Source: a virus (lineage: Duplodnaviria; Caudoviricetes). Taken from it: DNA of 64,000 nucleotides. The translations under genes were made by a program, and so were the position numbers. This document shows positions 27,417 through 53,334 of this stretch, in pieces (position 1 is the stretch's first letter; every line of letters begins with the position of its first letter). The stretch lies in the IMG/VR virus record IMGVR_UViG_3300024346_000003; one strand, given 5' to 3'. The notes under the pieces were generated by a model. It saw nothing but the letters and a program-made list of their open reading frames with translations, was not told the DNA's origin and made no database searches.

Positions 27417-27442
27417 AAAAAAGGGGTTATAAGACCCCTTTA
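27417..27442. terminator. Bidirectional terminator
   Basis: AAGGGGT-TATAAG-ACCCCTT between convergent genes. Confidence 0.7.
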
Positions 27443-27467: not shown

Positions 27468-28997
27468 TTAGAATGTTGAACCCGAAACCCTCAACCATTG
27501 ACCATTCGCTTTCCAATAAAAATGAGTATTATCCCATGTTATAGAACCATTTTCACCAACAGTATCTGCTGAACTTGTTGGAACTGATGCTGTTTTTTTA
27601 ATTACAAAATCTGGAACATAAACAGTATCAGCAGCTGAACCAGTTATACCTTGACCACCAATAATAGCACTTCTATCACCACTTATTGTTGAATTAGATG
27701 AATGAACGAATGATACGATACCAGTTGCGGTTGAACCTGAACCACCCGCATGTGAATGAAACCCAGATGCTATTGTATATAAATTTTGTGAATGTGAATT
27801 AATTCCAGTTGCTTTGGTACCATAACCTTCAGCGTGTGAACCCGTACCACTAGCAAGTGTACCAATACCTTCAGCGTGTGTATTATATGTTGTTGCTGAG
27901 GTTTGCTGACCTTCAGCATGTGAATTTTGACCACTAGCTAATGTAATATAACCTTGAGAATGTGAATAATAACCACTAGCAGTTGTTTGATACCCTTCAG
28001 CATGTGAATAATCACCAAAAGCTCTTGTTAAACTACCCTCAGCATGCGATGTGGTACCACTAGCTATTGTTCTATCACCTTCAACATGTGACGCTGTACC
28101 ACTAGCAGTTGTACCAGAACCTTCAGAATGTGATAGATAACCACTAGCTATTGTTAAACCACCTTCAGCGTGTGAAAAAATACCACTAGCAGTTGTAAGT
28201 GAACCCTCAACATGTGAATAATCACCACTAGCAGTTGTACCTTGACCTTCAGCATGTGAATAATTACCACTAGCAGTTGCATAACTACCCTCAGCATGTG
28301 ATGCAGCACCACTAGCTGTTGTTAAATTACCTTCAGCATGTGAATAAATACCACTAGCAAGTGTACCAGTACCTTCAGCATGTGATGTATTACCACTAGC
28401 TATCGTTCCATATCCCTCACTATGTGAATAATCACCAATAGCGGTTGTAAAACTACCTTCAGCATGTGATGTATTACCACTAGCTATCGTTCCATATCCC
28501 TCACTATGTGAATAATCACCAATAGCAGTCGTATTAGAACCTTCAGCATGTGACGCACTACCACTAGCCGTTGTAGTTGCACCTTCAGCATGTGACTGAT
28601 TACCAATCGCTATTGTATTTGCACCTTCAGCATGAGAACCATAATCACCACTAGCTGTTGATTGATATCCTTCAGCATGTGATGTAATACCACTGGCTAT
28701 TGTTAAATTACCTTCAGCATGTGAATAAACACCACTAGCGGTTGTATTAGCACCTTCAGCATGTGATGAATCACCACTAGTTATTGTATAATCACCTTCA
28801 GCATGTGATGAATTACCAATAGCTGTTGTAAAACTACCTTCGGTATGTGAACTAGTACCAATAGCTGTTGTATCTTGACCTTCAGCATGTGAATTAATAC
28901 CACTAGATATTGCACCACTACCTTGTGATAATGCACCAAAAATGGTTTGACCCGTTAATGTAGAATCATTGTTGTTAATAATATAAGAAATAGACAT
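27468..28997 (-). CDS. YadA-head (Hep_Hag)-like repeat fibre/adhesin
   Basis: About 28 14-aa repeats T(T/I)ASGxxSHAEGxx; fibre-like C-terminus WDNTHFYWK. Confidence 0.8.
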   Translation of the reverse strand: MSISYIINNNDSTLTGQTIFGALSQGSGAISSGINSHAEGQDTTAIGTSSHTEGSFTTAIGNSSHAEGDYTITSGDSSHAEGANTTASGVYSHAEGNLTIASGITSHAEGYQSTASGDYGSHAEGANTIAIGNQSHAEGATTTASGSASHAEGSNTTAIGDYSHSEGYGTIASGNTSHAEGSFTTAIGDYSHSEGYGTIASGNTSHAEGTGTLASGIYSHAEGNLTTASGAASHAEGSYATASGNYSHAEGQGTTASGDYSHVEGSLTTASGIFSHAEGGLTIASGYLSHSEGSGTTASGTASHVEGDRTIASGTTSHAEGSLTRAFGDYSHAEGYQTTASGYYSHSQGYITLASGQNSHAEGQQTSATTYNTHAEGIGTLASGTGSHAEGYGTKATGINSHSQNLYTIASGFHSHAGGSGSTATGIVSFVHSSNSTISGDRSAIIGGQGITGSAADTVYVPDFVIKKTASVPTSSADTVGENGSITWDNTHFYWKANGQWLRVSGSTF

Positions 28998-29086: not shown

Positions 29087-32000
29087 ATGGTTAAAAATAA
29101 TTTATTAATAATAACATCTCACTTATCAACAGGTGGTGCACCTCAGTTTACATTAAATAAAATTGAACTATTAATGCTTGATTATAATGTTGTATGTGTT
29201 GAATATAATTTTTTATCACCAGACTTCGTAGTTCAAAGAAATAAGATAATTAATTTATTAGGTGATAAATTTATTTCTCTTGGTGATGATAAATTTAACC
29301 TACTTAAAGTTATAGAAGATTTTGACCCTGAATTAATTTTTATAGAAGAATTATCTGAAACTTTTATTGATTCAACCATGTTACCTAAACTTTATGATGA
29401 AAATAGACAATATAAGATATTTGAAACAACACATAGTTCATACGATTCAAAACAATTAAAAAAGTACTTACCTGATAAATTTATATTCGTATCTGAATAC
29501 TCAAAAAAAATGTATGAGGATTTGGGTGTTGAATCAACAGTTATAGAATATCCAGTTGATAAAAAAAATAAATCACAAGAACTTGCCATTGAAAAATTAA
29601 ATCTTGACCCAAATTCAAAACATGTTATAAATATTGGATTGTTTACTCCAGGCAAAAACCAAGGTTATGCTTTTGAATTAGCTAGACAATTTGAAGGTGA
29701 AAATGTAACATTCCATTTTATAGGGAATCAAGCTGGTAATTTTCAAGATTATTGGAAACCATTAATGGAAACTATACCAAGTAATTGTGTAATATGGGGA
29801 GAGAAAGATAATACTGAAGATTTTATAATGGCTAGTGATTTATTCTTATTCACATCTAAACTAGAATTAAATCCATTAGTGGTTAAAGAAGCACTAATGT
29901 ATGACTCAAATATCCTAATGTTTAATTTAGAAACATATTGTGGTTCATATGATAATGAAGAATGTATTTCTTTTTTAACTGGTGATATTGATACCGATGT
30001 TAATAAAATGATTGACTTATTACAATTGAATGAAGTTGATGATGGTCATTATGATTTTATTGAGATTGGTACATCAGATTTTGACACATTAATTGAAGAA
30101 TCGACTAACCTAACTAAAGGGATAAGTATTGAACCAATAAAGTATTATATCGATAGATTACCAAATAAACGAAATGTTGAAAAGGTACAAGCTGCTATGT
30201 CAGATGAAGAAGGTAAAATAGATATATACTACATAGAAGATAATAATATTGATGCTTATAATTTACCATGGTGGGTTAGGGGTAGTAATAGTGTAAATAA
30301 TCCACATCCATTTACCGTTAAAGAAATTGGTAAAGAATTATATGATAAATTAGTTACAATTCAAGAAGTACCAACTATTACTTGGTCAACCTTAATTGAT
30401 AAGTATAATGTAAAAAGTATTGATTATTTAAAAGTTGATACTGAAGGTTATGACCACGTTATTTTAAATGAGTATTTAAATGAGTGTGAAAAGAATCCAG
30501 GTTTATTAGCAAATAAAATAAAATTTGAATGTCATAATGAAGTTTCAAATAAAGAGGAAATTACTAAATTATTAAAAAGATTTACTGGTTATGATGTTGA
30601 ATATCTAATGAGTGATATAATTTTAAGAAAACAAAAGATACCTAGAATTATACATCAAACATATAAAACAAATGAGTTACCAGTTGAATTAAGTAATAAT
30701 GTTGAACAACTTAAAAAAATGAATCCAACATTTGAATATAGATTCTACAATGATGAAGACTGTGTAAATTTTATAAAGGAAAATTATCCAGAAGAAACAT
30801 TAAAACTGTATTTAACCATTAATGATAGTTATGGCCCAGCTAAAGCTGACTATTTTAGATATCTATTAATGTATAAAGTTGGTGGGGTTTATTTAGACAT
30901 TAAAAGCACAACAACAGTACCATTAGAAGACACATTATTATATACCGATGAATATCTTTTGTCACATTGGCCAGGTAAAGATTGGTCCGATGAATTAGGT
31001 TATTCACTTGGTGAATTTCAAAATTGGCATATCATATGCAAACCCGAACACCCATTTCTAAAGAAAACAATAGAACTAGTTGAAGATAACATTAGAAACT
31101 ATACCGATGGAGCGGGTAAAGAGGCCGTATTAAGAACTACAGGACCAATTGCATACAGTAAGGCGATATTATCATTATTAAACGATTATAGACCACTTAT
31201 GACTGATTCACCAGTAAGAGAATACCAAGTGTCAGAAGAAATTGGTTTAACGTATATGAATACTAACGTACATCACCATAGTTTATACAAAGGATATCCA
31301 GATAATGAAAAATTAATTAATGATAGTTTAGTAAAGCATGGGTATGTATTATACAGTAATGTTAAATACTTTAACATCGTTAGTGCGGCAGCAAAATCAA
31401 TTAGAGCATTTAGTAATCTACCAATATATGTATATATGTTAGATTCTGATTTAAAGGTTAATGTTGAAAATGTAACAACAATTAAGTGGGTTTGTAATTT
31501 AGAAAACGATGCTAATATGTATGAAAGTTCAGAATCTAACTTTTATATAAATAGAAATAATTCAAACATCTATAAATTACTAATACAAAGACCACTAATC
31601 ATGAAAGATGTTTTAACTAATTATTTAGATATTGCGGTATATGTTGATAGTGATTCGATTGCAACACCAAATGTTGATAATATCTTTAACTTATACACTG
31701 ATTTTAGTTACCCATTCTTTGTTCAAGGTGTTTATGATTATTTATTTGCAAATGGTAGAGGTGGTGCTGAAACTAAAGAAGATTTAACAACCACATTGGA
31801 ACACCCAGCTTGTGAACTATATAGCGTTAATCAAAAGGTACGTGAAAGATATAGACAAACTGGTTATTTTATTGCTAGTAAAGATTGTATCGATTTCATG
31901 GATGAGTGGTATTGGATGTGCATAAACCCAAAAATATTAAAAAATAATGAACATTATGCACCATATAATGAAGAAACAATATTAAATGTTTTGTTATGGA

Positions 32001-32215
32001 AATACAACATATTAAATGGGTTACCATACATTTATGTTAATGGTAGTTTAGATAATATTGATTTAATTTATGATAAAGTTGGTCTTGATGATAATGAAGA
32101 AGAGTTATCAAAATGGGTTAGAGTTCCAGCTAGTAAAGAAAATTTATTATTTTTCCATGGTGAAAAAGATGTTGATATAATGGAAAAAATGATTGAAAAA
32201 TTAAAAGAAATATGA
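29087..32215 (+). CDS. Multidomain glycosyltransferase: GT4-like + FkbM-like methyltransferase + GT32-like + GT-A (GT8-like)
   Basis: NIGLFTPGKNQ...ASDLFLFTSK.ELNPLVVKEAL; FIEIGTSDFD...IEP...LKVDTEGYD; IPRIIHQTYK...ADYFRY...GGVYLDIK; VYVDSDSI. Confidence 0.75.
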   Translation: MVKNNLLIITSHLSTGGAPQFTLNKIELLMLDYNVVCVEYNFLSPDFVVQRNKIINLLGDKFISLGDDKFNLLKVIEDFDPELIFIEELSETFIDSTMLPKLYDENRQYKIFETTHSSYDSKQLKKYLPDKFIFVSEYSKKMYEDLGVESTVIEYPVDKKNKSQELAIEKLNLDPNSKHVINIGLFTPGKNQGYAFELARQFEGENVTFHFIGNQAGNFQDYWKPLMETIPSNCVIWGEKDNTEDFIMASDLFLFTSKLELNPLVVKEALMYDSNILMFNLETYCGSYDNEECISFLTGDIDTDVNKMIDLLQLNEVDDGHYDFIEIGTSDFDTLIEESTNLTKGISIEPIKYYIDRLPNKRNVEKVQAAMSDEEGKIDIYYIEDNNIDAYNLPWWVRGSNSVNNPHPFTVKEIGKELYDKLVTIQEVPTITWSTLIDKYNVKSIDYLKVDTEGYDHVILNEYLNECEKNPGLLANKIKFECHNEVSNKEEITKLLKRFTGYDVEYLMSDIILRKQKIPRIIHQTYKTNELPVELSNNVEQLKKMNPTFEYRFYNDEDCVNFIKENYPEETLKLYLTINDSYGPAKADYFRYLLMYKVGGVYLDIKSTTTVPLEDTLLYTDEYLLSHWPGKDWSDELGYSLGEFQNWHIICKPEHPFLKKTIELVEDNIRNYTDGAGKEAVLRTTGPIAYSKAILSLLNDYRPLMTDSPVREYQVSEEIGLTYMNTNVHHHSLYKGYPDNEKLINDSLVKHGYVLYSNVKYFNIVSAAAKSIRAFSNLPIYVYMLDSDLKVNVENVTTIKWVCNLENDANMYESSESNFYINRNNSNIYKLLIQRPLIMKDVLTNYLDIAVYVDSDSIATPNVDNIFNLYTDFSYPFFVQGVYDYLFANGRGGAETKEDLTTTLEHPACELYSVNQKVRERYRQTGYFIASKDCIDFMDEWYWMCINPKILKNNEHYAPYNEETILNVLLWKYNILNGLPYIYVNGSLDNIDLIYDKVGLDDNEEELSKWVRVPASKENLLFFHGEKDVDIMEKMIEKLKEI

Positions 32216-33360
32216 ATTCAGAAGAAACTAGATTAAAGTATTTGAAAGAAATAAAAAACACTAAAATTAATATAATGAAACCTAAAGAACAAATGTCATT
32301 TAATTACCATTTTGTAAATAATCCTTTTTTTGAAGTTATTGGGAATGTTGATGATGAGTTTTTAGTTGAGTTTTATGATAATAATATGGTATTAGTTCAT
32401 TCAGCAACCATAAATAGTAATATGTGGACCAAGTTAAATAGAAAATATTTTACAGAATGGAATATTAAAGCTTATCGTAAAGGTGAATTAGTTTGTGATT
32501 ATACTTTAGATTTATCAGATAAACGTGTGTTTATAACAATGGAGTCATCATCATTAGGTGATACTATTGCTTGGATACCTTATGTTGAAGAATTTAGAAA
32601 AAAACATAATTGCAAAGTTATACTATCAACTTTCTGGAACAAACTATTAAAAGAATCATACCCTAATATTGAATTTGTTGAACCTGGAGTAACTGTGCAT
32701 AATTTATTCGCTATGTATTCATTAGGTTGGTTTTATGACGAGGATGCTGAACCAGTATTACCAAACACAATTCCACTGCAACAAACTGCTACAAATATTT
32801 TAGGTTTAGAATTTACTGAAATAAAACCAGATATTGATTTTAAACCAAAGGAAAATCCATACGATACAAAATATGTGACAATTGCACCAAATTCAACATC
32901 AGGTCTTAAGTATTGGAATAATAAAACTGGTTGGCAAGAAGTAATTGATTTCTTAATTGAAAATGGTTACAAAGTTATCGATGTATCCAAAGAAGGGTCA
33001 AAATATAAAGGTGTTGAAAAATTAAAAGACTGCTCAATTGAAAATACAATGAATGTTATTCACCATAGCGAGTTCTTAATCGGACTTAGCTCTGGTTTAT
33101 CATGGTTATCTTGGGCGATTGGAAAACATGTTGTTATGATTTCTAATTTTACAGTAGAAGACCATGAGTTTACAAGTAACTGTACTAGAATTGTTAATAA
33201 ATCAGTATGTAACGGTTGTTGGAATAATCCAAATTATAAATTTGATAAGGGTGATTGGAATTGGTGTCCAGAACATAAAAACACTTATAAACAATTTGAA
33301 TGCCATAAAAGAATAACTGGTGACATGGTTATTACTGAAATTAAAAAATTATTAAAATGA
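32212..33360 (+). CDS. Aah/TibC-family (GT-B) protein O-heptosyltransferase-like enzyme with iron-finger Cys motif
   Basis: SSSLGDTIAWIPYVEEFRKKH; KYWNNK.GWQEV; IGLSSGLSWLSWA; CNGCWN...WNWCPEHK...FECHK.IT. ATGA overlap with previous gene. Confidence 0.8.
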   Translation: MNSEETRLKYLKEIKNTKINIMKPKEQMSFNYHFVNNPFFEVIGNVDDEFLVEFYDNNMVLVHSATINSNMWTKLNRKYFTEWNIKAYRKGELVCDYTLDLSDKRVFITMESSSLGDTIAWIPYVEEFRKKHNCKVILSTFWNKLLKESYPNIEFVEPGVTVHNLFAMYSLGWFYDEDAEPVLPNTIPLQQTATNILGLEFTEIKPDIDFKPKENPYDTKYVTIAPNSTSGLKYWNNKTGWQEVIDFLIENGYKVIDVSKEGSKYKGVEKLKDCSIENTMNVIHHSEFLIGLSSGLSWLSWAIGKHVVMISNFTVEDHEFTSNCTRIVNKSVCNGCWNNPNYKFDKGDWNWCPEHKNTYKQFECHKRITGDMVITEIKKLLK

Positions 33361-34031
33361 ATTTAGATAACTTTGATTGGGGGTGGATGAATACATCAGA
33401 AGGTGAACACCACAAAGATTTAATAACATATGAAACTTTTGAAACTAAAATGTATGAAAGGTTTTTTGAAGTTGAGGAAAATGATATAGTTTTAGATGTT
33501 GGTGGTAGTATCGGGTCATTTACATATTCCATATTAGATAAAAAACCAAAACATGTTTATGTTATTGAACCAAGTGAATTAGAGTTTGAAACGTTAGTTA
33601 AAAATACTGTTGGGTACCCAGTAACACCAATACTTAAAGGTGTGTCTGATTATAATACGTATATTGAGAACCACCAAGTATATGGTGATGAAACACATAT
33701 GGAAGGTATTACATTTAAAAAATTAATTAAATTATATAATTTGGATAAAATTGATTTTTTAAAGACTGATTGTGAAGGTGGTGAATACTCAATATTTAAT
33801 GATGAAAATCTTGAATATATACAAAGCAATATTAAAAAGATTGTTGGTGAATGGCATTTGTTAACAGCAGAACTAAAAACTAAATTTATAAACTTTAGGG
33901 ATAATTATTTAGTTAAGTTCACAAATTACGAGGTGTACTCAATAGACGGTGTTAATATTAAATGGGATTTGTTCAACGAACACTTCATGGAATATTACAC
34001 TGAAGTAATAATATATATAGATAATAGATAA
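33357..34031 (+). CDS. FkbM-family SAM methyltransferase
   Basis: IVLDVGGSIGSF, VIEP, IDFLKTDCEGGEY, IVGEWH. Confidence 0.85.
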   Translation: MNLDNFDWGWMNTSEGEHHKDLITYETFETKMYERFFEVEENDIVLDVGGSIGSFTYSILDKKPKHVYVIEPSELEFETLVKNTVGYPVTPILKGVSDYNTYIENHQVYGDETHMEGITFKKLIKLYNLDKIDFLKTDCEGGEYSIFNDENLEYIQSNIKKIVGEWHLLTAELKTKFINFRDNYLVKFTNYEVYSIDGVNIKWDLFNEHFMEYYTEVIIYIDNR

Positions 34032-34034
34032 AAT

Positions 34035-34409
34035 ATGGAAATAGAAGTTTCAATAGGAGAGATAGTTGATAAATTATCAATCTTGGATATCAAAAGAAGA
34101 AGAATAACAAATAGTGATAAATTATTTAAAATTGAAAATGAGTATAATTACCTACATAAAATTGTATTTACTGATTTAAATATTAACACACATGATTATG
34201 AACAATTGTTAATAATAAATGAACAATTATGGGATATTGAAGATGATATTAGAATCAAAGAAAAAAATAAAGAATTTGATGAACCGTTTATCGAATTAGC
34301 TAGATTAGTTTACATAACCAATGATATTAGGTTTGAACTTAAAAAAGTTATTAACATAAAGTATGGTTCAAACTTTTCTGAAGAAAAATCATATGAACCA
34401 TATAATTAA
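34035..34409 (+). CDS. Small helical protein, DUF6165-like (GT-cluster associated)
   Basis: IEVSIGEIVDKLSIL.IK...N..LWDIEDDIR.KE....FDE.FIELAR.VY.TND.R..LK..IN. Confidence 0.65.
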   Translation: MEIEVSIGEIVDKLSILDIKRRRITNSDKLFKIENEYNYLHKIVFTDLNINTHDYEQLLIINEQLWDIEDDIRIKEKNKEFDEPFIELARLVYITNDIRFELKKVINIKYGSNFSEEKSYEPYN

Positions 34410-34898
34410 TTAAAACTTTTTATCAGTTTTCTTCTTAAAATATTTTTCCCTAAGTGCTTTTCTAGCTTGGGTGTATTCCCACGCATCTAAAGCATGTTGT
34501 TTTTGACCAAATGCAAAGTTTAATAATCTACTAAACCAAAGTCCAAATCTATTCAACTTACCTTCTTTTTGTAATTTACCAACACTTGCTGATACAGAAA
34601 TATCTCTATCAGTAAATGTTGTATTTTCTTCAGCTGTCATAAAATCTTCAAGTATTTCACCATTCACATTCCATATTAAATCTAAAGAATATGCTAACTC
34701 ATACAGTATATGACCTAAAGCAAAGAATACACCATCTATTAGTCGCCACCAGAATATAAAAAATGCATACCATTTTTTTAATGTTATTGTCAACCAAATA
34801 GAATAACCTAATGAATACGCAGTACCCATTGTTATCATTAAACAACTCACTATTGTAGCCCATATTAAAGCCCAAACTCCTTGAAAAAATTCTTTCAT
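34410..34898 (-). CDS. Hypothetical membrane protein
   Basis: Hydrophobic N-terminal half; last gene of the fibre operon. Confidence 0.6.
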   Translation of the reverse strand: MKEFFQGVWALIWATIVSCLMITMGTAYSLGYSIWLTITLKKWYAFFIFWWRLIDGVFFALGHILYELAYSLDLIWNVNGEILEDFMTAEENTTFTDRDISVSASVGKLQKEGKLNRFGLWFSRLLNFAFGQKQHALDAWEYTQARKALREKYFKKKTDKKF

Positions 34899-34909
34899 AA
34901 TTAATTTTT

Positions 34910-35659
34910 TTATTCTAATCTTAATCTATCAATAATACCATCCTTAATAGTTTGTGTTAAATATGGTTTTGTAGAATTGGTTATAGCGGTTCTTAACGGG
35001 TCAGTATACCCATCTATGAATAAATCAACTTCTGTTTTTACACCACTTAATAAATCGAATGACTGTGTCTGACCAATTTGAAATAATGTGTATGATTTAG
35101 TATCAGCAATTATATTACCCCTTCTATCTAACCCTTCTTGTATTGCCTCATCTGTTGAATAATATTTTATAATATTTTTCTCAACACCAATAGTGTCATC
35201 ACTTAAATACCATTTTATATTTAAATTTCTATTTTTAATTAAACCATTAACATCTCTAATGCAAACCATATTTTCTTCTAAAATCAATTCAGAATAGGTG
35301 ATACCATCATAATTTTTAAAATACTCAACCTTTATTAAATTACCGTATAAAATTGTTCTTTTTTTATGAAACCCTAATATATCATAATTGATATCAGAAG
35401 GGTTAATAATTGAATCAGTTATCTTATATTGTACATTAATATATTGTGGTTTTATATCTTCAGGTAATAAGTTATAAAGCTCAATTCTAACGATAGGTTT
35501 ATAATATGTAATTGTTTCATCAATTGAATTATTTACCAATTGATACATATTACCATTAAATAAATAATCTCTTATTTCATCATTTAATGGTACATATTCA
35601 ATATATAAACCATCCTCGAATAGTTCATATCTATTTAATTTTATGTCGAATAATTTCAT
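34910..35659 (-). CDS. Hypothetical protein in fibre operon
   Basis: 249-aa ORF, tightly packed. Confidence 0.6.
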   Translation of the reverse strand: MKLFDIKLNRYELFEDGLYIEYVPLNDEIRDYLFNGNMYQLVNNSIDETITYYKPIVRIELYNLLPEDIKPQYINVQYKITDSIINPSDINYDILGFHKKRTILYGNLIKVEYFKNYDGITYSELILEENMVCIRDVNGLIKNRNLNIKWYLSDDTIGVEKNIIKYYSTDEAIQEGLDRRGNIIADTKSYTLFQIGQTQSFDLLSGVKTEVDLFIDGYTDPLRTAITNSTKPYLTQTIKDGIIDRLRLE

Positions 35660-35662
35660 AGT

Positions 35663-36547
35663 TTAATAATCAGTTTCATAATATATAGATACATAATCAA
35701 GACCAACAGCTGAAGCTGTTGCATTATTAGTTCTATAATCGTTATTTGATAATAGTGCTGTATTTAAAGGTAAAGCTACACCAGCAGCTCCAGTTAACGT
35801 ACCCATAGCAACATCACCAGTATTTAATCTCTCAACCCTATAACCAACACTATTCGTTGAAGATGGACTATTAAATAAAGCTAACTCATATAAATCAGTA
35901 CTTCTTGTATTTGATGGAAATAATGCCCCTAAATTAATTGGTGTTTGGGCTGCTGAACCTCCGTAATATATTCTTAAGGTTGTATCGGCAGCACCATGAC
36001 CAACGCCAATTACGTTAGTTAATGTTGATGGTTCAACATTTACTGGTGAAGTAGCGATGTTTCTTAAACCAACAAACATTCTAGCACCAGCTACCGCAGC
36101 AGCATCAGATATACCAAATCTAACCACATAATAAAAACCACCACCAGTTAATATAGCGCCAGACCCCATTGTTAAAATTAATGAAGTAAGTCTTTGACCA
36201 GTTAATGAACCAGCGGGTGTTCCTGATAATACTTTAAGTCTTCTTGTTCTGGTGAAAAGGTTAGTAGTTGATAAAGCAACTGCTGTTGCTGTACCTGTAA
36301 TTACCATTGGACCTAAACCGAATGTAGTAGTAGCAACAGTTATCCCATTTGCAGTCCAATAACCAACTTTATTGGCAAATAATCCTGATTGAAACGAATA
36401 ATCAACTCCACTAGGACCTACTTGTCCATACATAAGTCTACCACCTCTATCTTTTAATTGTAAAAAAGCACCATCAGGAATTGGTAATGGTTGTGTCACT
36501 GTTTTAGGTGTAAATACTACACCATTGTTTATATTAAATTCTGCCAT
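35663..36547 (-). CDS. Fibre-associated beta-rich protein
   Basis: 294 aa, T/S/G/A-rich, lectin-like beta-sandwich character; follows the 1657-aa fibre. Confidence 0.45.
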   Translation of the reverse strand: MAEFNINNGVVFTPKTVTQPLPIPDGAFLQLKDRGGRLMYGQVGPSGVDYSFQSGLFANKVGYWTANGITVATTTFGLGPMVITGTATAVALSTTNLFTRTRRLKVLSGTPAGSLTGQRLTSLILTMGSGAILTGGGFYYVVRFGISDAAAVAGARMFVGLRNIATSPVNVEPSTLTNVIGVGHGAADTTLRIYYGGSAAQTPINLGALFPSNTRSTDLYELALFNSPSSTNSVGYRVERLNTGDVAMGTLTGAAGVALPLNTALLSNNDYRTNNATASAVGLDYVSIYYETDY

Positions 36548-36556
36548 ATTATTTTT

Positions 36557-39500
36557 TTATGTATGTCTAACTATTATTGAACTAAACCATGAAATTGATG
36601 TTGCAGCTTCACCAGTAACTTGTACTAGTATATCTGAACCAGATATTGACATCGATACCGCTGCTGATGAAAATGACGTATTTTGTGTTATTACCTGTGA
36701 ACCAATTTGAGTTATAACACCAGCTTTATTAATAAAACTACCAAGTATTTTACTTGTGATACCTCTATTAAAAACACTATCATATGCTAATACATTTGAT
36801 TCAATCATATATACTTTATTAGATGATAAAGTGATAGTTTCAAGTGTTGTAATTGTAGCATTACCTGTTGATGTTGAACTATTACCATTATGTGTAAAAT
36901 CGCCAAGCAATGTTAATATTGAACCATCAAATGTTAATGCTGATTCACCATTAATTGACCCAGCAACACCAGTCGCAGTTAATAGATAATTATCAACATT
37001 ATTACTTATTGTAACACCACCAGCACCACTAGTACCAGATGTACCATTAGTTCCACTTACACCAATACCACCACTAGTACCCGATGTACCAAAGAATGTA
37101 CCATCAACACCACTAGTACCCGATGTTCCAGATGTACCACTAGTTCCTGAAGTACCATATATTGCTTTTAATTTAGTAACACTTAAAACCGCATTATTAA
37201 CTAAACCACCCGAAGAAGCAACATAACGTGATGCTAATGAAACATAATCACCAGCTGATAAAATTTCTTGAGTAGTAATACCAACAGTCATTTTATCCGT
37301 ACTTGAATTTTTACCTTGAATCAAACTACCATTTAAAACGGTTAAAGCATTTTTAGTAACAGCAAATTCAAAGTCGTTTGTTGTGGTACCTTGAGCAACA
37401 TCACAATGGTAATGTATTGAGTATAATCCACTATCATAAACATAAATTCTATCAGTATTTGTGTTATCATGAGCGATAACTGCGGAATCATTTTCAACAT
37501 CTGTAACATCAAAAGGTATCAATGCTGGTGCAAGTGTTAACGTATACGATGTAGTCCTTCTAGCTTGAGCAACTACCATATCACCAGTTACCGCAAAACC
37601 AGATATTGACCCACTTGTACCACTAGTTCCAGATGTACCATTAGTCCCACTCACACCAGTACCTGATGTTCCAGATGTACCATTATCACCACTACTACCT
37701 GATGTACCCGTTGTTCCACTAGTTCCACTTGTACCTGTAGTTCCAGACGAACCATTAGCACCACTACTACCTGATGTGCCAGATGTACCACTTGTACCTG
37801 ACGAACCATTTGCACCACTACTACCACTAGTTCCAGTTGTACCAGAAGACCCATTAGCACCACTACTACCTGATGTACCACTCGTACCAGTTGACCCTGA
37901 AGTTCCAGTTGTACCTGAAGTACCTGATGAACCATTCACCCCACTACTACCACTAGTACCTGACGTTCCACTTGAACCATTATCACCACTACTACCTGAT
38001 GTACCCGTTGTTCCAGATGAACCAGAGGTTCCACTTGTTGCAGATGAACCTGATGTACCCGAACTACCGTTAGCACCACTTGAACCTGATGTACCACTTG
38101 TAGCTGAACTACCTGACGTTCCCGAAGTTCCTGTTGTACCTGACGAACCATTAGCACCAGATGAACCACTAGTCCCCGTTGTTCCACTTGAACCATTTAC
38201 ACCACTTGAACCTGATGTACCACTTGTAGCTGAACTACCTGACGTTCCCGTAGTACCAGATGTTCCTGATGTTCCACTTGAACCGTTAGCTCCACTACTA
38301 CCAGATGTTCCACTTGTAGCTGATGTACCTGAAGTACCACTCGTACCAGTTGTTCCACTAGTTCCAGAAGTTGCTGATGTTCCACTAGTTCCACTTGTAG
38401 CTGAACTACCTGATGTTCCACTTGTACCCGATGTACCGCTAGTTCCAGAGCTACCCGATGTACCAGACGTACCATCAGAACCACCACTTCTATAATATAC
38501 AGTACCATTAGTATCTGTAACCATAAATCTAGTTAAAGTGGGGTTATTAGTTAATCCAGTAACATTAATATTTGAAGTTTCTAATAAATCGACATTAACG
38601 ATATTATTATTACCCATATTTAAATTTCCAGACATAGGTCTAGCACCATCAACTAATAGATATTGTAAGTGGTCATCTGATGAAAGCCCTAATAAGTTAG
38701 CATGTAATGATGATGCATTTACCCCACCAGCTTTAAACCCAATAACTGGTCTAATATCTTCAAATTGTGTAATACCTGTTAAACCTTGTTGAATATATAT
38801 GTTTGCAATTTGAGCAACTGAATCATTAAAAAAAGTTGGAGGTGTTGGTAATAAAGCATTTTCAGCTTGAACCAATGTTGCATATTCATTTTGACCTAAT
38901 ACTAAAAAATATTTTTCATATGAACCATCACCAACAATATAAAGAGTGTGTTTTGTAAAATAATTTGTAGTTAATCCAGATAAAACACCATTATTATCAA
39001 AATCTGTATTATTAACAATAGTTGTACCTGATGTAATCCAACCACCAAGACCATCTCTACGATATTGTAAAAATGATATAGGTGAACCACCGATAGTTGT
39101 ATAAACATTAGTTGAATAATAATACTCACCAGCGGTAACATCTAAAGTAAATCCAGTAGTTCCTTCTGTGACAATAGAACCATAAGCATAAATTGGACCC
39201 AAAGCTTCCCTAAATAAATTACCATATCTATTTGAGGTGTGGTCAGCATTTAATGGACTTAAATCAATAAAAACAACACCTGTTGAATCTGTAACAACCC
39301 TACCTAAAATTATATTATTTACTGAACTTGGTCTACTACCAGAACTTGATAAAATACTATTTTCATTTATATAAATGTAATCATTTGTATTTGGTAATAA
39401 AGTAATTTGAGAATTACCCCAATCAATTCTAACTATAACACTAGGTGATAGTGTTTTAGCCAAATAACCAAAACCAATTTTTACTGTAACTGTAAATCCA

Positions 39501-41530
39501 CTATCGAGTATAATAGTACCACCTTCCATTAGACCCATCGACCCACCTTGAAATATTAAAGTTGTAAAATCTGTATGGGTTCCGTCTGCAAATGTTACAG
39601 AAGCTTTTCTTGTAATTTCTAATTCACCATCATCAATATCTAGATAAGACCAATATATGTCAGAACTGTTTGTAAATATTTTTTGGTGACTAGAACTACC
39701 ACCAAAAGTACCAAATGTGTCAATTTGTTCAACATATAAATCCCATTCCCCATTTACAATACTTACATTATCAATATCAAACATAATTGGGTCTCCCACA
39801 TTTGGATTTCTAATGCCATATGTAAAACCATCTATTGTAATTGTACTACAATATAATCCAGCACCATCTTGAACAAAGTATGCAGTACTACCTGAAACAC
39901 CATTACTTGCATTGTCACCAACAAAAACACTTAATGTTGCACCACTACCTGATACATAGTTACAATAAGTCACATTTGCTCCCGTTGGGAAGTTAAAATA
40001 GTTTTCCATATTGGCTAACGCCTCATAACCGTTGTTTCCTATAACTTTTGTTCCATAAGTATATGTACCATTATAATCAACATATTCACCATAAAACTTA
40101 GTATCTTGAGTGTTTGATTCAACCCAGATATTTGTATCGCAATCGTAAAATGATATTTTATGTGCTTGACCGAAATCACCAATATCATAAACATAAATAC
40201 CAGCATACCCAACTCCAGAACCACTAAGACTTAAAAAAGATATTTCATTATTAACTCCTAATTTCATTATATGTTGTGATGATGTTGCTGGTAATATTTG
40301 TGTTGTTTGGATATTACTACCAACAATACTTACGTATGGTGTTTGTGTTAAATCAATTTCGTTTTCTGTAAATTGACCAGGACCAACCTGAATAACATAT
40401 CTACTATTAGAAGATGTTGACCCACTAGCAATTAAATAATCAACTGCTGATTTTATAGATGTAAAATCAGCACCTTTTTTTGCTACAGTAATTATTCTAG
40501 CATCTTGACCAACCTCATAAAGTGGTGAATTTATATTTATTCTTGTTTTTAAGAAATTATCAGTACCTTGAACCTTACCAATTGCACCAGAATGTATTAT
40601 ATCAACATCCTTTGTACAGTTTTCAAAATTAAGTGAAATAGCATCAATACTTGGTGCAGAACCAACTTGCGGTGCATAAATACCCGTAGCCCATCTTTGA
40701 AAATTAACACCTGTCAATCTTAAAGATGCACCATTCTCAATCCAGAACCCAACACCAGCAGCACTACCGCTTGCCTTTGTTAATAAACAACCATTAACAA
40801 TAAACGCACAACCAGGTTGGTCAGCCTTAGCGAATACTAATCCAGCTGTTGTTGCAACACCACCATTTGTTGATGTTACGTTTCTTAATTGCATTCTACC
40901 TATACCTGAACCATCGTTTGTACAATAGAACCCTAAAGTAAATGGATAACCACCGTATTTTACATTTGAACATTGCATAATACAGTTACCACCAGAAGTA
41001 CCAACAACTTTAGCATGTGTATAGTTAGTACCAAATCTTACATTTTCAACATAAAATATAGCATTTAATTGAGGTGTTGTAGGTGATGAATAATATACAG
41101 CCGCAACACCAGTACCAGTACAACCTTGAATTTGTACGTTATTAATCATAGATTGGTCAGCACCAATAATTAATGATACATTTGGATTTATAGCTTGTAT
41201 AATTGTATTTGTTGCACTTTCACCAATAACATCAACATATGATTTCATGGTTATGGTGTTTTCATAGAATACGCCAGGACCAACTGCAACAACATAAGTA
41301 TTTGTTGACGAAGCACCAGTGATACTATCAACCGCCGCTTTAATTGAATTAAAATCTACAGTACTCCCAGAAAGACCAACGGTAACTAAATTTTTAACAT
41401 TAATTAAATCATTAATATTTCTACTTTTTACAAGACCAACATTATCAATAGCTAATACTTCATTTTCAGTTGTACCACTATTTATCGACTTAATAATTAT
41501 ACCTTTTCTGGCTACAAATTCATTTGACAT
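36557..41530 (-). CDS. Large fibre: beta-helix-like region, Gly-Thr-Ser collagen-like stalk, C1q/BclA-like domain
   Basis: Two V.KKGADF.SIK.AV(D)-type motifs (the first more divergent); about 96 G-X-Y triplets at 37607-38473; IPFD...DSGLYSI.Y...LSAGDYV.L at about 37170-37580. Confidence 0.7.
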   Translation of the reverse strand: MSNEFVARKGIIIKSINSGTTENEVLAIDNVGLVKSRNINDLINVKNLVTVGLSGSTVDFNSIKAAVDSITGASSTNTYVVAVGPGVFYENTITMKSYVDVIGESATNTIIQAINPNVSLIIGADQSMINNVQIQGCTGTGVAAVYYSSPTTPQLNAIFYVENVRFGTNYTHAKVVGTSGGNCIMQCSNVKYGGYPFTLGFYCTNDGSGIGRMQLRNVTSTNGGVATTAGLVFAKADQPGCAFIVNGCLLTKASGSAAGVGFWIENGASLRLTGVNFQRWATGIYAPQVGSAPSIDAISLNFENCTKDVDIIHSGAIGKVQGTDNFLKTRININSPLYEVGQDARIITVAKKGADFTSIKSAVDYLIASGSTSSNSRYVIQVGPGQFTENEIDLTQTPYVSIVGSNIQTTQILPATSSQHIMKLGVNNEISFLSLSGSGVGYAGIYVYDIGDFGQAHKISFYDCDTNIWVESNTQDTKFYGEYVDYNGTYTYGTKVIGNNGYEALANMENYFNFPTGANVTYCNYVSGSGATLSVFVGDNASNGVSGSTAYFVQDGAGLYCSTITIDGFTYGIRNPNVGDPIMFDIDNVSIVNGEWDLYVEQIDTFGTFGGSSSHQKIFTNSSDIYWSYLDIDDGELEITRKASVTFADGTHTDFTTLIFQGGSMGLMEGGTIILDSGFTVTVKIGFGYLAKTLSPSVIVRIDWGNSQITLLPNTNDYIYINENSILSSSGSRPSSVNNIILGRVVTDSTGVVFIDLSPLNADHTSNRYGNLFREALGPIYAYGSIVTEGTTGFTLDVTAGEYYYSTNVYTTIGGSPISFLQYRRDGLGGWITSGTTIVNNTDFDNNGVLSGLTTNYFTKHTLYIVGDGSYEKYFLVLGQNEYATLVQAENALLPTPPTFFNDSVAQIANIYIQQGLTGITQFEDIRPVIGFKAGGVNASSLHANLLGLSSDDHLQYLLVDGARPMSGNLNMGNNNIVNVDLLETSNINVTGLTNNPTLTRFMVTDTNGTVYYRSGGSDGTSGTSGSSGTSGTSGTSGTSGSSATSGTSGTSATSGTSGTTGTSGTSGTSATSGTSGSSGANGSSGTSGTSGTTGTSGSSATSGTSGSSGVNGSSGTTGTSGSSGANGSSGTTGTSGTSGSSATSGTSGSSGANGSSGTSGSSATSGTSGSSGTTGTSGSSGDNGSSGTSGTSGSSGVNGSSGTSGTTGTSGSTGTSGTSGSSGANGSSGTTGTSGSSGANGSSGTSGTSGTSGSSGANGSSGTTGTSGTSGTTGTSGSSGDNGTSGTSGTGVSGTNGTSGTSGTSGSISGFAVTGDMVVAQARRTTSYTLTLAPALIPFDVTDVENDSAVIAHDNTNTDRIYVYDSGLYSIHYHCDVAQGTTTNDFEFAVTKNALTVLNGSLIQGKNSSTDKMTVGITTQEILSAGDYVSLASRYVASSGGLVNNAVLSVTKLKAIYGTSGTSGTSGTSGTSGVDGTFFGTSGTSGGIGVSGTNGTSGTSGAGGVTISNNVDNYLLTATGVAGSINGESALTFDGSILTLLGDFTHNGNSSTSTGNATITTLETITLSSNKVYMIESNVLAYDSVFNRGITSKILGSFINKAGVITQIGSQVITQNTSFSSAAVSMSISGSDILVQVTGEAATSISWFSSIIVRHT
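37607..38473 (-). repeat. (Gly-Thr/Ser-Ser)n collagen-like repeat
   Basis: [15 protein letters not shown] triplets, about 289 aa. Confidence 0.95.
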
Positions 41531-41681: not shown

Positions 41682-43277
41682 TTATATTACTCTAACACCA
41701 TTTTTAATAGTCCAAGTACCACTTGATATAGTTGCAATAAGATTAACATTACCACCAGATAAACTAACTGATAAATCAACTTGATTTGTAGTACCACCTA
41801 AATCTAATGTAGATGTATCAGTATATTCAGTACCAATACCATTCCAAACACTCACAACTGTACCAACCCTCATAGTAGTACCACTCATAACATAATAATC
41901 AAAATAAGCACCATAACCAAATGTTTCTGGTATTGAAGAACAAACATGGATACCAGTAGTTAATCCACTTATAATATTAGTGTCCATAACTAATGTACCA
42001 TCAAGTATTAACCTTGAATTATCATACGTTAATCCAGATTGTGCAATTGCACCATTTGTTGTACCATCAGATGTTAATAATCTAGTTATTTGTGGGAATT
42101 GTACAGTATTGAATCCTGTTCCACTACTACCCGAAGTTCCACTTGTACCAGTAGTTCCAGAAGTACCACTTGTTCCAGTTGTCCCAGAACTACCTGATGT
42201 GCCAGAGGTTCCTGATGTACCCGAAGTGGCTGAACTACCTGATGTTCCACTAGTACCACTTGTTCCAGTTGTCCCAGAACTACCTGATGTGCCAGAGGTT
42301 CCTGATGTACCCGAAGTGGCTGAACTACCTGATGTTCCACTAGTACCACTAGTTCCAGAAGTCCCGCTTGTTGCTGAACTTCCACTTGTTCCGCTTGTTC
42401 CAGTTGTCCCAGAACTACCAGATGTACCCGAACTACCAGAACTACCACTAGTTCCAGATGTACCACTTGTTGCTGAACTTCCACTTGTTCCGCTTGTAGC
42501 CGAACTACCCGAAGTCCCACTTGTACCCGTAGTTCCAGATGTACCACTTGTTGCTGAACTTCCACTTGTACCCGTAGTTCCAGATGTACCACTTGTTGCT
42601 GAACTTCCACTTGTACCCGTAGTTCCAGATGTACCACTTGTACCTGATGTTCCAGTTGTCCCAGAAGTTCCACTTGTGGCAGAACTACCTGATGTACCCG
42701 AACTACCAGAAGCACCACTACTACCAGTACCACCACTTGTACCACTTGTTGCTGAACTACCACTTGTTCCACTTGTACCTGTAGTTCCAGATGTTCCCCT
42801 CGTGCCTGAAGTACCGCTAGTTCCACTTGTTGCTGAACTACCTGATGTTCCGCTAGTTGCTGAACTACCCGATGTACCACTAGTTGCTGAACTACCTGAT
42901 GTACCACTCGTACCTGACGTACCTCTAGTTCCACTTGACCCAGAAGTACCTGATGTGCCAGAGGTTCCTGATGTACCATCCGAACCACCAGATTGATAAT
43001 GAACATTATCATTTGCATCTAAAACTAAAAATTTAGATGAACCTATTATGTTACTAACATTTGGTAATTTTAATATATTTAAACTTGTTTCACCTGTAAC
43101 ATTAAAATTACCATCTATCGTTGCAGTTGTTGCTGATAATCTAATAGACATAGTTCCATCACAACTAACTATATCAGCAGTTGTAATACCAGTACATGGT
43201 TTAAACGGAGTAACTGGTGTGCTACTAATTATGAACGTCTTATTTACGTTTATATTACCTTGTGAAAAATTATCCAT
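41682..43277 (-). CDS. Gly-Thr-Ser collagen-like fibre protein
   Basis: About 288-aa GTS/GSS/ATS tract (42114-42977) flanked by small beta domains. Confidence 0.75.
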
Positions 43278-52284: not shown

Positions 52285-53334
52285 CTAACTTTTACTTTCT
52301 AAGTATTTTTTTATGGAATTAATAACAGTTTCTGATTTAGTAACAAATGGTGCATAATAATTAACATTTTTTAAAGTTGGATTAGCCGATATTCTACTGA
52401 CATTAGATTGAAATTCATGATTCATTTGGGTAACATCACTAATTAAAAATGTATGAGTACCAACACCCCAAGACAACCATGATAATCCAGAACTAACACC
52501 CATGAAAAATTCAGCATTTCGTAATGTTTGAGCACGATTAAGTATTGACCTATCACCAGTTAAATCAGTTACATTTGTAAGATTAGTTGGTTCTTTAGAT
52601 ATAACAAACACATCATAATCAATTGAATTTAGATAATCAACAACATCTTGCCAACCATTTTCACATTTCCAATGTTTTTTTTCATGACTTGCAAATTCAG
52701 AAATACAAACGTATTTTCTATTGAATTTCATATCTCTTAATTGTTTTTCCAATTCTGGTCTTATCTCAACCATTGGTAAATATAATATTGATGATGCAAC
52801 ATATTGTAATGGCATTTCATCAACCACTACAGGTGAATATTTTTGATTACCATCATTAGATGCACCTATGTAATATTGAGCATAAACATTATCAACATTT
52901 GTATTCGGTGCTACAAATAAAATATTTGGGTAAACATCTTTAAATAAATCATTATAGAAAGTTGAACAAATTAAAACACAGTTATATTTTTTTCTGAATT
53001 CCTCAATGTATGGTATCCAAGCAATATTATCACCTAAAGCATATGCATCTAATTTTATAAATATAACTGAATTTTCTGGGTTAAAACTATTTTCAGCAAC
53101 TAATAACCCATCATGGTGAACAGTTGTATACCAATTCATATACCATTGCACTATATTTGAATATACCGTTTCACCAGTTTTACATTTAACTGATTTTACC
53201 TTTTCCATACCATCAGATTTTACAACATAAAATGTTACATCATATTCAACAAGTAAATCCCCACCAATAGTTACTGATGGAGCATTTGCCTCTTTAGGTA
53301 ATGTTGTTTTATAATTAAACTTAATATAATTCAT
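52285..53334 (-). CDS. Second Aah/TibC-family glycosyltransferase (no Cys iron finger)
   Basis: AYALGDNIAWIPYIEEFRKKY; KHWKCENGWQDVV; MGVSSGLSWLSW; Cys cluster absent. Confidence 0.75.
   Translation of the reverse strand: MNYIKFNYKTTLPKEANAPSVTIGGDLLVEYDVTFYVVKSDGMEKVKSVKCKTGETVYSNIVQWYMNWYTTVHHDGLLVAENSFNPENSVIFIKLDAYALGDNIAWIPYIEEFRKKYNCVLICSTFYNDLFKDVYPNILFVAPNTNVDNVYAQYYIGASNDGNQKYSPVVVDEMPLQYVASSILYLPMVEIRPELEKQLRDMKFNRKYVCISEFASHEKKHWKCENGWQDVVDYLNSIDYDVFVISKEPTNLTNVTDLTGDRSILNRAQTLRNAEFFMGVSSGLSWLSWGVGTHTFLISDVTQMNHEFQSNVSRISANPTLKNVNYYAPFVTKSETVINSIKKYLESKS

Follow-up and report, generated by a model that had tools for sequence, protein, structure and literature searches.

Why would a tailed phage carry, among its tail fibre genes and on the opposite strand, a bacterial type of protein O-heptosyltransferase together with other glycan-building enzymes? 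We addressed this question in a 64,000-nucleotide (nt) stretch, hereafter the window, of the IMG/VR virus record IMGVR_UViG_3300024346_000003 (Duplodnaviria; Caudoviricetes). The record is 109 kb long, with a G+C content of ~30%, and because this is only 31% of the genome by CheckV's estimate, this uncultured phage is jumbo-sized. The list of open reading frames (ORFs) places a cassette of four plus-strand ORFs within a minus-strand tail module. A first-pass annotation of this DNA had described a coupled cassette inverted inside the fibre region, and all four ORFs lie where it put them: a multi-module glycan-building enzyme of 1042 aa (29087..32215, +; Pfam, NCBIfam); a BAHT-family (TibC/Aah-type) protein O-heptosyltransferase of 382 aa with a Cys4 iron finger (32212..33360, +; TIGR04414), the proposed priming enzyme; an FkbM-family S-adenosylmethionine methyltransferase of 224 aa (33357..34031, +; Pfam PF05050, TIGR01444), proposed to O-methylate sugars; and a DUF6165 protein of 124 aa (34035..34409, +; Pfam PF19662), a putative accessory. 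The first two junctions are 4-nt overlaps of the ATGA type and the third is a 3-nt gap, an arrangement indicating translational coupling. Our analysis, which is built on sequence and predicted structure, points to a phage-encoded system that O-glycosylates the tail fibres of the phage itself within the cytoplasm of the host, a reading that we consider probable.

The identity of the 382-aa enzyme carries much of this reading. In keeping with its first-pass assignment to the Aah/TibC family, it scored 292.9 bits (E 3.2e-87) against the TIGR04414 profile (hepto_Aah_TibC), above the curated equivalog cut-off of 200, whereas the best lipopolysaccharide (LPS) heptosyltransferase model reached 23 bits. 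Its residues 71-380 could be aligned to TibC (PDB 4rap; E 3e-56). An AlphaFold2 model for which 47 homologues were used (mean pLDDT 90.5) matched the TibC chains in Foldseek with TM-scores of 0.82-0.83 over ~378 columns, N-terminal beta-barrel included; WaaC and WaaF gave 0.38-0.50 against the same model. By profile and by predicted fold, the enzyme groups with TibC and not with the glycosyltransferase family 9 (GT9) enzymes of LPS synthesis. In TibC, Asp110 is the catalytic base, Thr226 and Lys230 contact the beta-phosphate, Trp305 contacts the heptose, and Cys339, Cys342, Cys358 and Cys370 are the iron ligands; position Pro300 sets stereoselectivity and is Ser in Aah, which takes L,D-heptose (PMC4358343). 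Pairwise alignment maps these residues to D117, T229, K233, W298, C333/C336/C352/C364 and S293, respectively, all of them invariant across 81 phage homologues. The sequence motifs correspond: LGD is L115-G116-D117, and the cysteines lie in C333xxC336, W351-C352-P353 and F362-E363-C364. Homology identifies the product as a genuine BAHT-family enzyme with a complete catalytic set and an iron finger, for which iron binding is predicted. The N-terminal beta-barrel and iron finger of TibC bind protein substrates (PMC4358343). DNA modification, considered as a target of the cassette, was dismissed, as the enzyme sits in the protein-specific BAHT branch.

What would the other cassette enzymes add? 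Pfam recognises three domains in the 1042-aa protein: GT4 at residues 165-312, in a GT-B module reaching to ~330; FkbM at 338-461; and Gly_transf_sug/DXD, which is GT32-like, at 532-613. NCBIfam fkbM_fam also matches the protein. Residues 740-1042 resemble Nucleotid_trans/GT8 at 0.93 in Atlas language-model features, and a PDB sequence search with this C-terminal module returned no match; we tentatively regard it as GT-A, as a lead only. The four-domain glycosyltransferase of the first-pass annotation is borne out by Pfam for GT4, FkbM and Gly_transf_sug, the C-terminal GT-A domain having the status of a lead. DUF6165 was recognised in ORF 34035-34409 at 37.4 bits (cut-off 27).

The same gene set recurs in relatives, which we counted in the best 80 of at least 213 related IMG/VR contigs; dereplicated at 90% identity, they fall into 47 lineages. 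The multidomain enzyme has homologues in 76 of these 80 loci, usually as fusions with the TibC-like domain, an FkbM-gene homologue lies directly 3' of the TibC-like gene in 43, and a DUF6165 homologue is found in 32. Most relatives, and Microcystis phage Mel-JY01, encode the TibC-like domain as the C-terminal part of a single protein of 700-1600 aa that also contains GT4, with or without FkbM. Because of this fusion the priming enzyme appears functionally tied to the extension modules, which supports the earlier idea that a glycan would be primed, extended and methyl-capped. One relative has, just 3' of its FkbM gene, a 925-aa protein (L029:11728-14502, +) with several Hint/intein-type modules and AXH-like domains.

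Larger islands are frequent in relatives and contain extra canonical GT9, GT2 and class I methyltransferase genes as well as DegT and PglD-like enzymes. A NoeE-like sulfotransferase, an APS-kinase-like gene and an NMNAT-like adenylyltransferase are grouped beside the TibC-like cassette in 13 loci (L072, at 14106-15379, L043, L045, L046, L057, L058, L066, L074, L077, L080, L134, L160 and L203), which suggests that some relatives also sulfate the glycan. Since LPS and polysaccharide synthesis typically involves GT9, GT4, GT2 and FkbM enzymes, a cassette of this kind could instead remodel the host surface during infection, acting on LPS, capsule, S-layer or host adhesins and, for example, blocking superinfection; the DegT, PglD-like and sulfotransferase-like genes of the richer islands and the orientation of the cassette opposite to the late structural genes would fit such a role. 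We find this distinctly unlikely: the enzyme falls in the protein-specific BAHT branch, with its N-terminal beta-barrel and iron finger (PMC4358343), the loci examined showed no flippase, Wzy/Wzx, initiating phosphotransferase or exporter, and the enzyme is persistently adjacent to fibre genes.

If fibre glycosylation is the function, which sugar is transferred? The first-pass annotation held that the donor need not be ADP-heptose. The relatives point the other way: ADP-heptose is likely after all, because several encode hldE/hldD-like genes beside the enzyme. The 110-kb, 95%-complete L072 has three such matches immediately beside its TibC-like gene, to ADP-glyceromanno-heptose 6-epimerase (TIGR02197, E 1.8e-47), heptose-7-phosphate kinase (TIGR02198, E 6e-34) and heptose-1-phosphate adenylyltransferase (TIGR02199, E 8e-28), all below the equivalog cut-offs. 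The same trio of hldD-, hldE-kinase- and hldE-adenylyltransferase-like genes lies beside the enzyme in L077, L080 and L081, and a complete 326-kb relative carries a kinase-adenylyltransferase pair away from the enzyme. The use of L,D-heptose, as in Aah, would agree with the Ser at the Pro300 position and with the presence of a phage HldD-like gene.

Which proteins would receive the glycan? The neighbours of the cassette are those named at first pass, a Ser/Thr-rich YadA-like fibre and two proteins with ~96 triplets each, and the latter two are the best-supported candidate acceptors. They are tail fibres of 1657 aa (36557..41530, -; Pfam Collagen E 4e-37, tail-fibre PHROGs) and 531 aa (41682..43277, -; Pfam Collagen E 2.3e-31), each with a Pro-free collagen-like tract of ~290 residues made of ~96 G/A-T/S-S triplets behind an identical SGGSDGTSG lead-in. 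The tracts span residues 1017-1306 of the longer protein (nt 37613-38482) and 98-387 of the shorter (nt 42117-42986), and both proteins match tail-fibre PHROGs via these collagen repeats. G[TS]S triplets number 78 in the 1657-aa and 71 in the 531-aa protein. Counted in G-X-Y runs of at least five triplets, Ser takes 71% of Y positions in the former and 83% in the latter, X is Thr or Ser, and the Pro/Hyp-rich X and Y positions by which collagen helices are stabilised are absent, with Pro at 0% in both tracts and at most 2.2% in 12 relatives. In these (Gly-Thr/Ser-Ser)n stalks most of the Y positions, the ones exposed to solvent in a triple helix, are thus occupied by Ser. The BAHTs that have been characterised act on Ser and not on Thr and can use peptides as acceptors (PMC4358343), a specificity that fits the Ser-dominated Y positions.

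Two further features of these fibres were noted. Ala takes the Gly register every few repeats (GSS-ATS-GTS) at 37613-38482 and 42117-42986, which is unusual for a triple helix; counted anywhere in the two collagen-like proteins, ATS occurs 12 and 8 times. Residues 1056-1285 of the 1657-aa fibre match animal collagens and PDB 8zxl (E 5.5e-78), whose chains are named 'spindlefibril | axialfibril'.

Is the pairing of enzyme and repetitive fibre more than a local accident? A scan of all 2.9 million IMG/VR contigs confirmed the at least 213 contigs with relatives of ORF 32212-33360; the best 80 are 53-66% identical to it, apart from one sister contig at 99%. In a large protein database, 3054 relatives reach E 1e-10 or better, and JGI's pipeline already gives them the TIGR04414 name. 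GenBank has the enzyme in only 4 of 50,697 phage records, namely three metagenomic phages of 636-735 kb and Mel-JY01, and PHROGs has no family for either of the two BAHT paralogues of the window. A collagen-like ORF (at least 20 G-X-Y triplets) is present in the locus in 26 of the 47 lineages, and in 20 of the 33 with at least 5 kb of downstream flank. It invariably lies downstream of the enzyme, convergent and on the other strand, at a distance of 3 bp to 6.5 kb, and it can be giant (3196 aa with 956 triplets in L009; 3122 aa in L017). The relatives' collagen-like ORFs that were examined have Ser at 60-92% of Y positions, Thr or Ser at X and ~0% Pro. Loci that lack an adjacent collagen gene have a giant protein with 18-28% Thr and mucin-like TPTxTPT linkers, divergent from the operon, and 31 of the 47 lineages have in the locus a protein of 300 aa or more whose Ser+Thr content is 27% or higher.

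The association was also examined in the reverse direction, in 44 phage records, mostly small fragments, picked only by DNA encoding five consecutive G-T-[S/T/R] triplets. Twelve of them contain a TIGR04414 match, 11 above the cut-off, as against only 213 confirmed relatives among the 2.9 million IMG/VR contigs. Conversely, the strict repeat pattern occurs in 22 of 50 enzyme-positive records, including all 4 that are at least 90% complete, and a reversed-pattern control gave 0 everywhere. A lineage-wide two-by-two profile attempted through DNA polymerase relatives yielded only 14 contigs, mostly fragmentary.

Among distant phages (41-43% identity) the pairing is repeated in 2 of 3: Mel-JY01 (41%) has a 1016-aa open frame with 202 G-X-Y triplets two genes from its fused enzyme, LR756501 (43%) has a 699-aa collagen-like ORF divergent from the glycosyltransferase operon, and LR756504 has no collagen-like ORF within 15 kb. 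Bacterial genomes contain at least 548 loci of the family, and a collagen-like ORF lies nearby in only 2 of the best 80; the collagen pairing is consequently a property of the phage branch and not of BAHT neighbourhoods in general. The co-occurrence with Ser/Thr fibre genes suggested in the first-pass annotation thus extends across divergent phages. The collagen-like frame of Mel-JY01 (PP395634.1, L001:2-3049, +) runs off the start of the record, where GenBank has two minus-strand hypothetical proteins; the repeat is open on both strands, and the strand has probably been miscalled. As to hosts, the closest matches from 'bacterial genomes' (L231-L233, 51-61% identity) are short contigs binned in metagenome-assembled genomes of Sediminibacterium, Chitinophaga and a gammaproteobacterium; they look like phage DNA binned into these genomes and may hint at Chitinophagaceae-type hosts.

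A different kind of fibre lies still closer to the enzyme. Divergent from the cassette and 90 bp from it is a YadA-head-like fibre of 509 aa (27468..28997, -; YadA_head E 1.5e-23, phrog_25468) with 14-residue 'SHAEG..T.A.G' repeats, 17% Ser and 13% Thr. The second such gene encodes a fibre of 1298 aa (53647..57543, -; phrog_25468 E 1e-138) with 28 exact SHAEG motifs and partial NCBIfam matches to BimA_second and EmaA, located 312 bp upstream of a second BAHT gene (52285..53334, -). Domain searches revealed no autotransporter beta-barrel domain in the neighbouring fibres, which have YadA_head repeats or collagen-like tracts instead. Phage proteins might accordingly be glycosylated with a main acceptor other than the collagen stalk, be it the SHAEG beta-roll fibres, the sheath, the capsid or a decoration protein. 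The SHAEG beta-roll resembles the strand-loop-strand acceptors of TibA and AIDA-I; the only two SHAEG fibre genes in the window directly adjoin the two BAHT genes; the neighbourhood of the second paralogue and its YadA-head fibre is kept down to 64% identity; in L072 a YadA-like fibre is encoded 6 kb away from the TibC-like gene; and BimC adjoins the trimeric autotransporter BimA (PMC6439308), whose model the 1298-aa fibre matches. Beyond the window, the iron-finger enzyme has a SHAEG fibre beside it in 1 of 80 loci by motif count, that of the sister contig, against collagen-like ORFs in 26 of 47 lineages. Unfiltered BLAST raised YadA-like/SHAEG matches to 5 loci (L004, L008, L062, L072 and L081), three of them short partial matches, and distant relatives of the second paralogue lack any fibre neighbour. 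On this balance we judge a main acceptor other than the collagen stalks unlikely. SHAEG/YadA-like fibres as a general substrate of the iron-finger enzyme were rejected on these counts.

The second paralogue deserves separate treatment. The first-pass annotation had located it at the end of the other fibre cluster, and it indeed lies directly downstream of the 1298-aa fibre gene. Its 349-aa product is 37.7% identical to the first enzyme, matches TibC with E 1.4e-23, and scores 180.9 bits against TIGR04414, below the cut-off of 200 and over profile positions 43-317 only. The C-terminus is cysteine-free and the whole Cys4 motif is missing, so that the reported combination of LGD with CxxC...WCP...FEC holds for ORF 32212-33360 and fails for this paralogue. 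A protein database search yielded 749 relatives with E-values no higher than 1e-20. In the 120 that were aligned, the residues matching Asp110, Thr226 (here Ser), Lys230, Pro300 (likewise Ser) and Trp305 do not vary, and the iron finger is deleted in all 120; the Arg286 equivalent is kept in the paralogue and in 117 of them. Decay of a redundant copy was rejected as an explanation, given the conservation of catalytic residues across these 120 relatives. The second paralogue is a member of a distinct, large, iron-finger-less BAHT subfamily that looks catalytically competent. Its relatives at 79-98% identity, and one at 64% on a 286-kb contig, keep the gene order YadA-head fibre, paralogue, small ORF, DNA polymerase, while the fibre itself has diverged to 50-67% identity with differing repeat numbers. 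A complex prediction of the paralogue with residues 430-640 of the 1298-aa fibre scored 0.00, which counts neither for nor against an interaction. Distant iron-finger-less members on contigs of 200-377 kb (L228-L230) have a 112-aa ORF and a 470-aa leucine-rich-repeat protein as kept neighbours, and the solenoid of the latter could be an alternative repetitive substrate.

Several observations weigh against O-glycosylation of the fibres by a TibC-like route. TibC Arg286, which contacts adenine N1 and underlies ADP specificity (PMC4358343), is Thr279 in ORF 32212-33360 and Thr in all 81 clade members, and the TibC 259-272 segment, the beta-hairpin thumb whose tip (Phe265/Val266) links dimers into a dodecamer ring (PMC4358343), is ~9 residues shorter in pairwise alignment; donor and assembly may therefore differ from TibC. 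For the donor, Thr at this position is no argument against ADP-heptose, because the hld-gene-bearing phages all have Thr too. No CTP_transf_like, SIS_2, Epimerase or NTP_transferase genes and no ADP-heptose genes were found in the 109-kb record, itself 31% complete, and GmhA was not found in five complete relatives, so that the pathway would start from a host intermediate. As regards the fibres, 13 of the 33 well-flanked lineages have no collagen gene nearby, 32 of the 44 records picked by repeat DNA lack the enzyme, though most are fragments, and the co-occurrence is in part inherited synteny within one phage lineage. Relatives of the second paralogue at 51-54% identity have no fibre neighbour and sit among thioredoxin, 470-aa leucine-rich-repeat and ClpB-like genes. 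Finally, BimC binds BimA and reportedly has no glycosyltransferase activity (PMC6439308). Likewise, one or both TibC-like proteins could be non-catalytic, fibre-binding assembly factors, the nearby transferases acting elsewhere, and the loss of the iron finger in the second paralogue would agree with this. Such a role seems very improbable to us: the catalytic Asp and the phosphate and sugar contacts are invariant in 81 plus 120 sequences, the TibC-like domain is fused to other active-looking transferases, and some phages have ADP-heptose synthesis genes beside the TibC-like gene.

A working model of fibre glycosylation can be outlined as follows. The BAHT enzyme would transfer heptose from ADP-heptose, presumably host-made for this fragment and phage-made in some relatives, to fibre serines before or during trimerisation, with the collagen-like stalks of the 531-aa and 1657-aa fibres as best-supported acceptors. 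The 1042-aa enzyme, with its GT4, GT32-like, probably GT-A and FkbM modules, would then extend the heptose by up to three sugars and O-methylate the product; the free-standing FkbM enzyme would put on a further methyl cap, and the DUF6165 protein would act as an accessory. The second paralogue would be another heptosyltransferase, probably differently assembled and most likely serving the SHAEG beta-roll fibre encoded just upstream. The phage might gain a stabilised, hydrated Pro-free collagen helix, protection of its long exposed fibres, or both; by analogy with other collagens, that the glycan stabilises the helix or shields the fibre is a speculative proposal. A more specific version holds that heptose glycans on Y-position Ser replace hydroxyproline and so make the otherwise unstable (Gly-Thr-Ser)n helix fold, the fibre being a glycan-dependent collagen, and that two BAHT lineages are matched to two fibre types, the iron-finger form with its extension modules to collagen stalks and the previously undescribed iron-finger-less form to YadA-like beta-roll fibres. 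We regard this version as possible but doubtful.

Precedents exist for glycans on collagen-like repeats. O-glycans occur on hydroxy amino acids of collagen-like G-X-Y repeats in Bacillus anthracis BclA, Riftia cuticle collagen and Mimivirus fibrils, and in Riftia a glycosylated Thr at Y stands in for hydroxyproline in helix stability. The phage tracts differ from these collagens in having Ser at Y and no Pro, a GT9/BAHT heptosyltransferase as the candidate enzyme, and a tailed phage as carrier.

The closest enzymatic parallels are the TibC-TibA and Aah-AIDA-I pairs of E. coli (4rap/4rb4; PMC4358343). The phage enzymes share their fold with the N-terminal beta-barrel, the catalytic Asp and the Thr/Lys and Trp contacts and, in the first paralogue, the Cys4 iron finger; the gene likewise stands beside a highly repetitive Ser-rich surface protein, and as in Aah a Ser occupies the position that allows L,D-heptose. 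The phage systems differ in being phage-encoded, in having a collagen-like or YadA-like tail fibre as partner instead of a type V secreted beta-helix, in the clade-wide Arg286-to-Thr change, in an apparently shortened thumb hairpin, and in the absence of the iron finger from the second paralogue. The phage enzymes are also usually fused, or here coupled, to glycosyltransferase and methyltransferase modules, implying an oligosaccharide and not single heptoses. BimC-BimA of Burkholderia (PMC6439308) offers a second parallel, a BAHT-family gene beside a trimeric adhesin with YadA-type repeats, just as both phage paralogues adjoin SHAEG fibres. Unlike BimC, which was reported as non-catalytic, the phage proteins keep all catalytic residues, and the second paralogue lacks BimC's iron site. 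Mycobacteriophages resemble the proposed system in another respect: phage-encoded glycosyltransferases modify the phages' own structural proteins in the cytoplasm (Freeman et al. 2023, Cell Host Microbe, cited in PMC12619734). There, the enzymes belong to other families, the acceptors are capsid and tail-tube C-termini, neither BAHT enzymes nor collagen-like fibres are involved, and the hosts are actinobacterial. Our literature search for papers linking TibC/BAHT heptosyltransferases with phages or collagen-like fibres, or dealing with Mel-JY01, found no relevant paper. Virion glycosylation by other enzymes is already established in mycobacteriophages.

The surroundings of the cassette complete the picture. 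The minus-strand tail module includes a tape-measure-like protein (17221-19821, -), a 944-aa sheath (24283-27117, -) and then several giant fibre-like proteins. A strong bidirectional terminator at 27420-27441, consisting of a hairpin and a T-run, separates the sheath gene from that of the 509-aa SHAEG fibre. At the other end, the DUF6165 gene (+) and a 162-aa gene (-) meet end to end at 34409/34410 with zero intergenic bases, leaving no terminator space for convergent transcripts. That 162-aa gene is the first of three small ORFs (162, 249 and 294 aa; 34410..36547, -) that separate the cassette from the collagen-like fibre. The product of 294 aa is similar to the C-terminal domain of a relative's collagen-like fibre, with 39% identity to the C-terminus of the L006 ORF and a C-terminal match to phrog_13925. 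A scan for sigma-70 promoters near the cassette gave fewer sites than shuffled sequence did and was uninformative, and megablast of the cassette against GenBank phages gave no match.

The window shows an unfused architecture with a four-module extension enzyme, an iron-finger-less subfamily, and both paralogues beside YadA-like fibres. It brings to light a virulence-associated bacterial enzyme family that is common in environmental jumbo phages, on at least 213 IMG/VR contigs and among ~3000 metagenomic proteins, and that adjoins some of the longest known Pro-free collagen-like proteins. The iron-finger-less subfamily is a natural test of the role of the iron finger in BAHT enzymes. Glycosylation of phage-particle proteins has so far been demonstrated in mycobacteriophages and by unrelated enzymes. 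If the fibres of these phages are glycosylated, this would bear on collagen folding, on the protease resistance of fibres, on host recognition and on the expression of such fibres for structural and applied work.

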